Under the pieces are notes generated by a model. The model was not told where the DNA came from, ran no database searches, and saw only the letters and a list, made by a program, of their open reading frames with translations. From Naegleria gruberi (taxonomy: Eukaryota), in assembly GCA_000004985.1 (NCBI GenBank), contig GG739618.1: a stretch of DNA of 1,013 nucleotides. One strand, given 5' to 3'. Of this stretch, positions 44 to 1,013 are shown piece after piece. A program made the position numbers and the translations under genes. How positions within the stretch are numbered: the first letter of the stretch is position 1; every line of letters starts with the position of its first letter.

Positions 44-77
44 CGGAACCGTCTGAATCGCAGCCGTTCGGGAGTTG
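44..77 (+). repeat. 34-bp direct repeat, copy A (CGGAACCGTCTGAATCGCAGCCGTTCGGGAGTTG)
   Basis: Read directly. It matches 342-375 at 33 of 34 positions; the only difference is C49 versus T347. It contains the GGAACC, CTGAATCGCA and GTTCGGG sub-motifs. The flanks on both sides are unrelated. Confidence 0.9.
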
Positions 78-152
78 GGTACCTCAAAAAATTGATATTA
101 TTATATATCATTGTATAGTCAAATAACTATTATATCAAAAATGGCTAGAACC

Positions 153-169
153 CAGCCGTTCAAAAGTTG
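153..169 (+). repeat. Degenerate partial copy of the 3' half of the 34-bp repeat (CAGCCGTTC-AAA-AGTTG versus CAGCCGTTC-GGG-AGTTG)
   Basis: CAGCCGTTC at 153-161 and AGTTG at 165-169 keep the same spacing as 61-69 and 73-77 in copy A. The central GGG is replaced by AAA. About 14 of 19 positions match. Confidence 0.4.
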
Positions 170-180
170 ACAATGATTTT

Positions 181-212
181 TATGAATATATATCTATCTA
201 TTATCTATATAA
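181..212. repeat. TA/TATC-rich, low-complexity, microsatellite-like tract (TATGAATATATATCTATCTATTATCTATATAA)
   Basis: Read directly. There are imperfect TATC, TATCTA and TA repeats. A similar AT-only stretch lies at 97-140. Confidence 0.6.
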
Positions 213-252
213 CCTTTTGTAAAGATTTTATTTTATAGAAATTGATTTTTGA

Positions 253-279
253 GCATGTTTCAAAAACCCAAAAACATGC
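253..279. other. Hairpin-capable inverted repeat: GCATGTTT (253-260) and AAACATGC (272-279), perfect 8-bp stem, 11-nt loop
   Basis: The arms are exact reverse complements. The loop is CAAAAACCCAA. Function is unknown; an 8-bp stem in AT-rich DNA is only marginally above chance. Confidence 0.5.
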
Positions 280-341
280 ACTTCGGGTCTCTGACTTCAT
301 GGTTGTCTATTTTCGGAACTGTTGAGAAGTAGTTCGTACAT

Positions 342-375
342 CGGAATCGTCTGAATCGCAGCCGTTCGGGAGTTG
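342..375 (+). repeat. 34-bp direct repeat, copy B (CGGAATCGTCTGAATCGCAGCCGTTCGGGAGTTG)
   Basis: Read directly. It lies 298 bp downstream of copy A and is 33/34 identical to it. Its left half (348-360) is also the left arm of an inverted repeat whose right arm is 393-405. Confidence 0.9.
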
Positions 376-405
376 TCATTTACTTCGTAACTTGCGATTC
401 AGGCG
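348..405. repeat. Imperfect inverted repeat and potential stem-loop: arms CGTCTGAATCGCA (348-360) and TGCGATTCAGGCG (393-405), 32-nt spacer
   Basis: The reverse complement of 393-405 is CGCCTGAATCGCA, which matches 348-360 at 12 of 13 positions. The arms 351-360 and 393-402 are a perfect 10-bp match. So the CTGAATCGCA core occurs in both orientations within 60 bp. Confidence 0.75.
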
Positions 406-538
406 AAAATAAATATCAAAATATGACACAACAGGGGTATTCATTTTTCACGACTTTTTTAGGGTGACTTATGGACCTGTTGTGTCATATAAACAATTTC
501 GTATTTTTTTTAGGAGGCCTGGAAAAAATTTTGGAACC

Positions 539-561
539 AAAAAAAAAGAAAAAAAGAAAAA
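539..561 (+). repeat. A-rich tract A9-G-A7-G-A5
   Basis: Read directly. It produces the KKKKKRK run in the 471..692 ORF. Confidence 0.9.
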
Positions 562-640
562 TAATTATCGGATTGACTATAAACTCGAGGGGCCCAGGAA
601 CTAGCAATATTTTATTTTCCCGAAATTCGCAAGTAAAATT

Positions 641-650
641 TTCGATCGAA
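641..650. repeat. 10-bp perfect palindrome TTCGATCGAA
   Basis: It is self-reverse-complementary. It sits 5 bp downstream of AATTCGCAAGT (624-634), which is a degenerate copy of the AATCGCAAGT core. A second CpG palindrome, GCGATCGC, lies at 938-945. Confidence 0.8.
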
Positions 651-670
651 GGTTTTGCACTAATATTATT

Positions 671-719
671 TATTTACAATAAACTGGATTAAGAGAATCC
701 TCTGAATCGAAAGTCGGGG
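671..719 (+). repeat. Diverged direct repeat, copy C (…AAACTGGATTAAGAGAATCCTCTGAATCGAAAGTCGGGG)
   Basis: An ungapped alignment to 891-939 gives about 37 of 49 matches. The 681-719 versus 901-939 portion matches at 30 of 39. It shares an AACTGGATTAA block, a GAATC/GGATC element, the CTGAATCGAAAG core (compare CTGAATCGCAAG) and GTCGGGG (compare GTTCGGG in copies A and B). Confidence 0.6.
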
Positions 720-734
720 TGAGAGAAAAATTTC

Positions 735-749
735 GGGGGAAAAAAAAAA
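735..749 (+). repeat. Homopolymer pair G5 then A10
   Basis: Read directly (GGGGGAAAAAAAAAA). It produces the GKKK run in the 719..925 ORF. It directly follows a TTCGGG motif. Confidence 0.9.
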
Positions 750-780
750 TTTCAAAAGTATGGTTGTGTTATCAATATAA

Positions 781-795
781 CCCGACACTGTCGGG
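781..795. repeat. 15-bp perfect palindrome CCCGACA-C-TGTCGGG
   Basis: CCCGACA (781-787) and TGTCGGG (789-795) are exact reverse complements around a single central C. It is GC-rich, sits in an AT-rich context, and is flanked by AAC on both sides. The half-site GTCGGG is the same element seen at 713-719 and, as GTTCGGG, in copies A and B. Confidence 0.85.
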
Positions 796-890
796 AACTA
801 ATACAGCCCTACTTTTGCTTCAATCGCAGTATTTAACTTTTCGGAGGTGGTCATTTTTTAAATATCCAATTAAATTTGAGTATTCGGTAT

Positions 891-939
891 TAATTGTAAT
901 GAACTGGATTAACAGGATCGTTTAAATCGCAAGTCGCGA
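891..939 (+). repeat. Diverged direct repeat, copy D (…GAACTGGATTAACAGGATCGTTTAAATCGCAAGTCGCGA)
   Basis: It lies 220 bp downstream of copy C and is about 76% identical to it without gaps. It contains AATCGCAAGT, which is identical to the reverse complement of 389-398. It ends in a GCGATCGC palindrome at 938-945. Confidence 0.6.
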
Positions 940-1013
940 TCGCCGATTTTTGTTCCTTTCATCAAACAAAGAAAATGTATAGTCGGTTTACTATATAATA
1001 TCCTTTATGAAGT

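Follow-up and report, generated by a model that had tools for sequence, protein, structure and literature searches.

The 1,013-nucleotide stretch of Naegleria gruberi DNA considered here (from contig GG739618.1 of assembly GCA_000004985.1, and called the window below) belongs to the non-ribosomal spacer (NRS) of the closed circular extrachromosomal rDNA element (CERE) of this genus, upstream of the 18S gene. The window itself is without rRNA, and its linkage to rDNA is through a homologue, the 14,434-nt metagenome contig L003, to positions 1337–2360 of which it aligns end to end with 96.9% identity. The short CpG-containing words over-represented in it are fragments of one interspersed element of about 26–34 nt, of which there are at least seven copies in the window, in two subtypes, D1 and D2. 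The core of the element, AACGGCTG, ranks first among the 8-mers common to five otherwise unalignable Naegleria spacers.

Naegleria rDNA is carried solely by the CERE, a circle of 12–16 kb, and about 4000 copies of it hold all the rRNA genes, including those of the brain-eating N. fowleri. The NRS is described as large, laden with repeats, little conserved from one species to another and of undefined regulatory content (PMC5805870, PMC7714845, PMC10112140, PMC10586121, PMC11008152), but it has been hypothesised to be the seat of regulatory domains (Mullican et al. 2018, 2020; Nguyen et al. 2023, 2024). Published repeat sizes, from self-BLAST within one species, are 34–371 bp in N. gruberi and 35–2135 bp in N. 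fowleri. Origin work on the N. gruberi CERE reportedly places a single origin in the NRS, within a 2.1-kb fragment, and a 636-bp piece is used in vectors as the ‘origin’.

L003 has its eukaryotic rRNA genes on the minus strand, with the large-subunit (LSU) gene at 8006–11461, 5.8S at 11609–11753 and the small-subunit (SSU) gene from 11787 on. It also has a GIR1 branching ribozyme (202.7 bits) and beside it a 254-aa His-Cys-box homing endonuclease (PF05551, E = 5e-37), whose closest named relatives are all from Naegleria: N. italica (89%), N. philippinensis (86%), and N. gruberi and N. andersoni (82%). Comparison with another rDNA contig, L001, puts the 5′ end of 18S about 10 nt downstream of L003 position 1, and because of this the window lies upstream of 18S, at approximately −1347 to −2370, with its plus strand antisense to the rRNA. 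The ends of L003 lack a terminal overlap and, judged against L001, some 690 nt of the 5′ part of 18S are missing between them, which is compatible with a circle of about 15.1 kb without being proof of it. The SSU gene is split by a twin-ribozyme group I intron carrying GIR1 and the 254-aa endonuclease (L003 13282–14434, L001 8206–9727), and the intron endonucleases of L001 and L003 are 99% identical despite the differing spacers. The window has no credible gene, its longest open reading frame (ORF) being of 73 aa, and exact-protein look-ups of its two longest ORFs gave no recorded match. BLAST of the whole window gave one chance AT-rich match in the phage collection and none in the plasmid collection, exact-motif scans of viral contigs and GTDB genomes gave no match, and the sole Rfam match at a permissive threshold, to a microRNA model at 421–492, is meaningless at 20 bits against a gathering threshold of 195 bits.

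The words were first noticed from the sequence alone, and an exact recount agrees with that initial annotation for TCGGG (plus strand at 68, 283, 366, 714, 733 and 791, with CCCGA at 619 and 781; total 8), for AATCGCA (plus strand at 56, 354, 822 and 925, with the reverse complement at 393; total 5) and for the variants AATCGAA at 705 and AATTCGCA at 624. Its count of five GGAACY on the plus strand is also right, as is the position 597, but its positions 46, 316, 535 and 796 are off by 1–2, the true starts being 45, 315, 533, 597 and 794. GC content of the window is 33.6% and the CpG observed/expected ratio 1.52. The enrichment that had been claimed from rough composition holds against 5000 dinucleotide-preserving shuffles of the window, with p ≤ 0.0004 for each of four words: TCGGG occurs 8 times against a shuffle mean of 1.53 (0/5000 shuffles reach 8), AATCGCA 5 times against 0.16 (0/5000), CTGAATCG 4 times against 0.02 (0/5000) and GGAACY 5 times against 0.68 (p = 0.0004). 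Nor are the more specific words general k-mers of the replicon, here the 14.4-kb L003, since six of its seven AATCGCA sites and all three of its CAGCCGTT sites are within the 1 kb equivalent to the window; TCGGG alone is frequent across the whole L003 spacer (3.9 per kb).

The words do not all belong to the element to the same degree. All five AATCGCA sites are inside element copies, as are three of the eight TCGGG/CCCGA sites (counting clear copies) and one of the five GGAACY sites, that at 45, with a related CGGAACTGT at 314. Element copies make up 32% of the window length, yet have 25 of its 43 CpGs. A 34-nt unit, CGGAAYCGTCTGAATCGCAGCCGTTCGGGAGTTG, occurs at 44–77 and 342–375, with a degenerate copy at 136–169, and a second unit, of about 50 nt, occurs at 670–722 and 890–945. 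In window orientation the element is modular, with module 0 (RGRATYSY) followed by module 1 (CTGAATCGCA) and then module 2 (GCCGTTCGGGAGTTG). The copies in the window are as follows.

44–77, minus strand: D1 copy A, with the element complete, and of all copies the closest to the rRNA genes; window plus strand CGGAACCGTCTGAATCGCAGCCGTTCGGGAGTTG, rRNA-sense CAACTCCCGAACGGCTGCGATTCAGACGGTTCCG.
136–169, minus strand: copy B, module 2 only, 92 nt from copy A; window plus strand CAAAAATGGCTAGAACCCAGCCGTTCAAAAGTTG.
342–375, minus strand: D1 copy 2, which over 34 nt matches copy A at 97% identity, in unrelated flanks (E = 2.7e-11).
385–418, plus strand: inverted partial copy, module 1, the sole one in opposite orientation (E = 0.003); window plus strand TCGTAACTTGCGATTCAGGCGA.
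670–722, minus strand: D2 copy a, the unit of about 50 nt TTATTTACAATAAACTGGATTAAGAGAATCCTCTGAATCGAAAGTCGGGG, module 1 then AAGTCG.
801–853, minus strand: split or degenerate copy, TTCAATCGCAG, a 12-nt insert and TTCGGAGGTGGTCATTT; a weak call (E = 0.009).
890–945, minus strand: D2 copy b, which includes AACTGGATTAACAGGATCGTTTAAATCGCAAGTCGCGATCGCC (E = 6e-6).

Alignment of 13 copies from the window, L001 and L010, followed by a profile scan, brought out this modular make-up. The rRNA-sense consensus from 30 copies in seven spacers is AACTYYYG-AACGGCT-G-SG-NTTYAG, i.e. AACTYYYG-AACGGCTG-SGNTTYAG, with the information peak on AACGGCT. D1 copies consist of modules 1 and 2 with the AACGGCTG centre, and copy B of module 2 alone (GAACCCAGCCGTTCAAAAGTTG). 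D2 copies have module 1, AAGTCG and a 25-nt left flank, and keep only the CGATTCAG module. TCGGG is thus the complement of the left flank, YYYGA, which is CCCG in some copies and TTTG in others, and AATCGCA that of the right flank CTGCGATT. The invariant centre, AGCCGTT in window orientation, was absent from the original list of words, and the link of GGAACY with the family is a loose one. The fixed order of GGAACY, a middle word and TCGGG that had been proposed for the best copies is found strictly in the copy at 44–77 only; that at 342–375 has GGAATC in place of GGAACY. Tandem Repeats Finder (TRF) reports only short A/T-rich arrays (91–117, 187–208, 539–561), none with the element, and there is no head-to-tail array.

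Two further observations concern TCGGG. The interval 781–795 is a perfect palindrome, CCCGACA-C-TGTCGGG, unchanged in L003, and it yields two of the eight TCGGG/CCCGA counts. Directly after D2 copy a, at 714–751, there is a 19-nt tandem duplication, TCGGGGTGAGAGAAAAATT / TCGGGGGAAAAAAAAAATT, which adds another TCGGG.

The window and L003 differ by 23 events, none of which is in a D1 or B core, and the copies at 44–77 and 342–375 have zero differences. Because of these unchanged cores, and of the sharp repeat boundaries with unrelated flanks, the copies appear to be under constraint. Seven of the 23 differences are clustered at 916–941 (L003 2263–2288), in one D2 copy, and the cluster looks like a gene-conversion tract between copies; D2 copy b in L003 is the family consensus, CGTCTGAATCGCAAGT, and for D2 copy a there are two more copies in L003, at 2017 and 4155. 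That the copies are no more than old duplications without function, kept alike by gene conversion in a plasmid population 4000 strong, is a reading to which some of the data lend themselves: homogenised repeats are common in rDNA spacers, the differences between the window and L003 in 890–945 resemble a conversion tract, and copy number and arrangement vary between lineages. It is nevertheless improbable, as conversion within a single lineage cannot yield identical cores of 16–29 nt, with orientation, A–B spacing and position, across spacers that do not align.

The comparison across spacers was made with further rDNA contigs fetched via intron-endonuclease homologues, including three near-complete CEREs, L004, L007 and L010. 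The spacers of L003, L001 and L010 align at two places only, one of them an 18S-proximal block reaching from 18S to about −900/−1080 with a GC content of 66–73%, presumably the 5′ external transcribed spacer (ETS), and the other this element, which all three have in one orientation, 1.2–1.4 kb upstream of 18S. Copy A is 100% identical between L003 and L001 over 27–29 nt, and over 24 nt it is 96% identical to L010. Copy B has an ortholog in L001 and an 87.5% match over 40 nt in L007, where AACTCCCGAACGGCTG is exact. That the best copies are identical over 27–29 nt between otherwise unalignable spacers bears out the initial view of a homotypic cluster as opposed to random low-complexity DNA. In the ranking, which was of strand-specific 8-mers found in all five spacers with an order-2 Markov correction, AACGGCTG comes first; it has 13 sense and 3 antisense occurrences against 0.26 expected per strand from dinucleotide shuffles. 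Module 1, CGATTCAG, has 19 sense and 4 antisense occurrences against 0.45 expected, in the L001/L003/L010 clade only.

Outside these contigs, five AACGGCTG and two CAGCCGTT occur in the CERE of N. fowleri strain TY, every one within the NRS, and the 3.08 kb upstream of 18S has AACGGC five times in sense and zero times in antisense; this sequence, from the supplement of PMC13398248, was machine-read from a PDF and may have small errors. In L017, a distant heterolobosean-like contig, two AACGGCTG-SGAATT copies form an inverted pair at about −1.1 kb. The motif strings are absent from the searchable texts that mention Naegleria, and the accessible CERE papers, which list repeats per species, give no cross-species NRS motif. 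The element, its modular structure and its Naegleria-wide conservation thus appear to have been undescribed so far.

The initial annotation had offered transposon subterminal repeats as one explanation, and its suggested follow-up implied an insect; the locus being the Naegleria rDNA circle, the latter falls away. Repeats at or near the termini of a transposon or miniature inverted-repeat transposable element (MITE) would account for multiple short subterminal-like repeats, and in L001 and L002 two perfect copies of 27–29 nt are indeed inverted and about 1 kb apart. This origin is nonetheless very hard to credit. The flanks of the L001 inverted pair differ and there is no target-site duplication, neither a transposase nor any other convincing ORF was found in the window, and the location is syntenic in all lineages. 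Moreover, when 241 million metagenome records were scanned for the 22-mer CTGAATCGCAGCCGTTCGGGAG, exact copies were on three contigs only, none dispersed, all of them rDNA and with the 22-mer in a constant place relative to 18S. Viral, plasmid, phage and prokaryote collections gave no meaningful match.

The geometry relative to the rRNA genes is also conserved. All sense copies of AACGGCTG are between −890 and −2810 from 18S. Copies A and B are in the same orientation and are spaced by 92 nt in L003, 92 in L001, 90 in L010 and 90 in N. fowleri. The distance of the proximal copy to the AT-to-GC, ETS-like boundary is 360–510 nt in six CEREs, that of N. fowleri being about 470 nt. In L001, L003, L004 and L010 no C[AC]GCCGTT occurs from the LSU 3′ end to about −2.8 kb, and in L007 there is a single match, at −5624 and in opposite orientation. 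Single-strand folding of the element copies was no better than that of shuffles (z from −0.9 to +0.9), and because there is no hairpin potential in the copies the signal would be one of duplex sequence. Taken together, sharp repeat boundaries, identity of 16–29 nt across diverged spacers, fixed position, strand bias, pair spacing and lack of structure argue for purifying selection on a duplex-DNA site, and the element is very probably a functional cis-element of the CERE upstream spacer. The proposed cluster of protein-binding sites has in this way become a specific homotypic element, the binding itself, by one or more sequence-specific nuclear (nucleolar) factors that recognise it as duplex DNA, being what we infer.

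Just at the AT-to-GC transition there is another conserved block, TCGAGTTCATCGACCCCCC-N5-GTCTGATCTTCAGTTCCTAACCTTGCGGAC (L003 about 890–960, i.e. −902; L001 −720; L010 −760; L007 −974), and TCGACCCCCC is at this boundary. This block is an alternative candidate for the start site of RNA polymerase I (Pol I), or for an early ETS processing site. The contig ends themselves (−370 to −590, in GC-rich repeats; beside the inverted pair in L017/L018) were considered as transcription starts and set aside, as they look like assembly breaks.

As to what the element does, control of Pol I transcription as a promoter or upstream enhancer is the role we put forward, tentatively. One or more nucleolar factors would recognise the copies as duplex-DNA sites, the proximal A/B pair, 90–92 nt apart, would form a bipartite promoter or upstream control element, and the distal copies would be spacer-promoter-like or enhancer-like duplicates that recruit the same factor. 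As is typical of Pol I spacer repeats, the copies are upstream of the transcription unit and mainly in gene sense. Several points tell against such a role. The literature gave no Pol I start site for Naegleria against which a likeness of the repeats to the gene promoter would be judged. The presumed 5′ ETS, moreover, becomes conserved and GC-rich only some 300–500 nt downstream of copy A, and with a start site at that edge copy A would be an upstream element and not the core promoter. The copies are interspersed and not tandem as in classical enhancer arrays, and inverted ones exist (window 385–418, L001 −2228 and two in L010). The exact core was not found in L011, with 2.26 kb of upstream sequence, or in L013, which has a related CAACTCCCGGACTTG repeat. 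In addition, AACGGCTG had been spotted before the unbiased 8-mer ranking was made, and a role in replication origin fits the same data.

An observation on L013, a more distant Naegleria-type rDNA, can be placed here. Its positions 150–330, about 1.1–1.2 kb upstream of 18S, are occupied by tandem repeats of about 90 nt that carry CAACTCCCGGACTTGTCC, in which the left flank of the element is fused to a GACTTG box in place of AACGGCTG.

The main rival to a role in promoter or enhancer function is that the copies are replication-origin elements, recognition sites for an initiator or a factor associated with the origin recognition complex (ORC) of the autonomous CERE, which is possible though it seems to us rather unlikely. 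A multicopy autonomous plasmid needs a conserved replicator, and the element is the only one found conserved across the spacers; the single N. gruberi origin is reported to be in the NRS; the copies flank AT-rich tracts of 18–24% GC; and a strong inverted repeat that could form a cruciform is among them, at 421–532, together with a conserved palindrome. The two features in question are these.

421–435 and 476–490: perfect 15-nt inverted repeat, ATATGACACAACAGG ... CCTGTTGTGTCATAT, with a 40-nt loop.
497–532: A/T-flanked palindrome TTTTTTTTAGGAGGCCTGGAAAAAA, between element copies.

Folded as single-stranded DNA the 421–532 region has a z of −4.5, and 497–532 is 92% identical to L001 5758–5793, an isolated conserved island; a cruciform, an origin feature and a factor site are all conceivable for the region. 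A yeast-type autonomously replicating sequence (ARS) consensus has been reported for the N. gruberi NRS, but there is no excess of the yeast ARS consensus sequence (ACS), one match with one mismatch against 2.63 expected; origins outside yeast need no such consensus. A transcriptional role explains the constant distance to the ETS boundary and the sense bias at least equally well. With due caution, we infer a role that is transcriptional rather than replicative.

A much more specific proposal with regard to replication is that the element is the replicator of the rDNA circle and is bound or nicked by a domesticated, spacer-encoded His-Cys-box endonuclease of the I-PpoI-like homing type. If true, the endonuclease and the element would together amount to an iteron/Rep-like system, here on a nuclear plasmid of a eukaryote, that starts or amplifies its replication. 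The sole hint for pairing the two is that both are conserved parts of an otherwise fast-evolving spacer, and the proposal is far-fetched. Free-standing spacer ORFs with the His-Cys-box/His-Me endonuclease family PF05551, not borne by an intron, are present at L003 6341–7408, L001 1219–1983 and L010 13419–13985, all on the minus strand, the one in L010 being a weak match, and a related endonuclease pseudogene has been reported downstream of 28S in N. gruberi. D2 units share 8 nt, TCTCTTAA, with the LSU rRNA homing site of I-PpoI type, a likeness judged probably due to chance.

The strong orientation bias of the copies and their placement a few hundred nt upstream of where the transcription unit presumably begins would also suit promoter-proximal Pol I terminators or polar barriers, at which a Myb-like factor of the Reb1/TTF-I type would halt polymerases or forks that read through round the circle. 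On a circular template read-through of polymerase is a real problem, Pol I terminator factors are Myb-like proteins, and the invariant AACGG matches YAACNG, the c-Myb core. This reading is doubtful, in that there is no copy of AACGGCTG downstream of 28S, where the main terminators are expected and where a different motif, a T-run with CGACTTGG in tandem repeats of about 118 bp, is present instead, and in that at least seven copies per kb is far above what is known of T0 sites.

The repeats of about 118 bp are worth describing for themselves. They are downstream of the 28S 3′ end in four CEREs (L003 5649–6301, L001 736–1126, L010 near −7140 and −7254, L007 −5978), with a common sense-strand box GGGTTTTTTTTTT...TTTTYCRATCT-CGACTTGG-AAATTTTT, and are candidate Pol I terminator repeats. 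The box resembles the Xenopus T3 box, GACTTGCNC. Resemblance of the D2 box CGACTTG to the CGACTTGG box was considered and found to be a weak link, since L001 D2-like copies keep only ACTTGCGATTCAG.

Recent papers note that poor spacer conservation hampers the finding of the Naegleria CERE promoter, terminator and origin by sequence comparison and blocks stable episomal vectors. The element, short, biased in orientation and conserved in its location across six divergent CEREs, that of N. fowleri among them, is a strong candidate for a promoter or origin signal, and provides a concrete sequence for mutation, for use as bait and for inclusion in vectors. Reiterated control elements in rDNA spacers are well known, and the element is no new kind of biology.

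Among systems already described, the published NRS repeats of Naegleria CEREs are like the element in the molecule and region that they occupy, but differ in being per-species lists in which poor conservation between species is stressed. The iterons of plasmids share with it multiple, mostly direct sites of about 20 nt in the control region of an autonomous circular replicon, whereas the Naegleria element is eukaryotic and nuclear, irregularly spaced and positionally linked to the rRNA unit, with no Rep-type initiator identified. For a role in replication the closest analogue is with the type I elements of Tetrahymena rDNA, which are short, one-orientation repeats in the 5′ spacer of an amplified extrachromosomal rDNA, are conserved between species amid drifting spacer and are implicated in origin and promoter function. 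They are A/T-rich, act partly as single strands and are on a linear palindrome, in contrast to the Naegleria element, which is G+C/CpG-rich, is on a circle and has no sequence similarity to them.

With regard to termination, the mouse T0/Sal box with TTF-I, the yeast Reb1 site and the Xenopus T3 box are promoter-proximal terminators with Myb-like factors. The Naegleria element is like them an orientation-dependent site upstream of a Pol I promoter, its AACGG resembling a Myb core. No sequence identity was found between it and the Sal box or Reb1 site, its copy number is much higher, and the same box, which would be expected downstream of 28S, is absent there. The vertebrate Pol I promoter has an upstream control element (UCE) and a core, and in Xenopus there are also 60/81-bp enhancers and spacer promoters. 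The vertebrate enhancers are tandem arrays with shown similarity to a mapped promoter, whereas the Naegleria copies are interspersed and a few of them are inverted. What the A/B pair has in common with the UCE and core is an arrangement of two related blocks about 100 nt apart in the same orientation, with further copies upstream.

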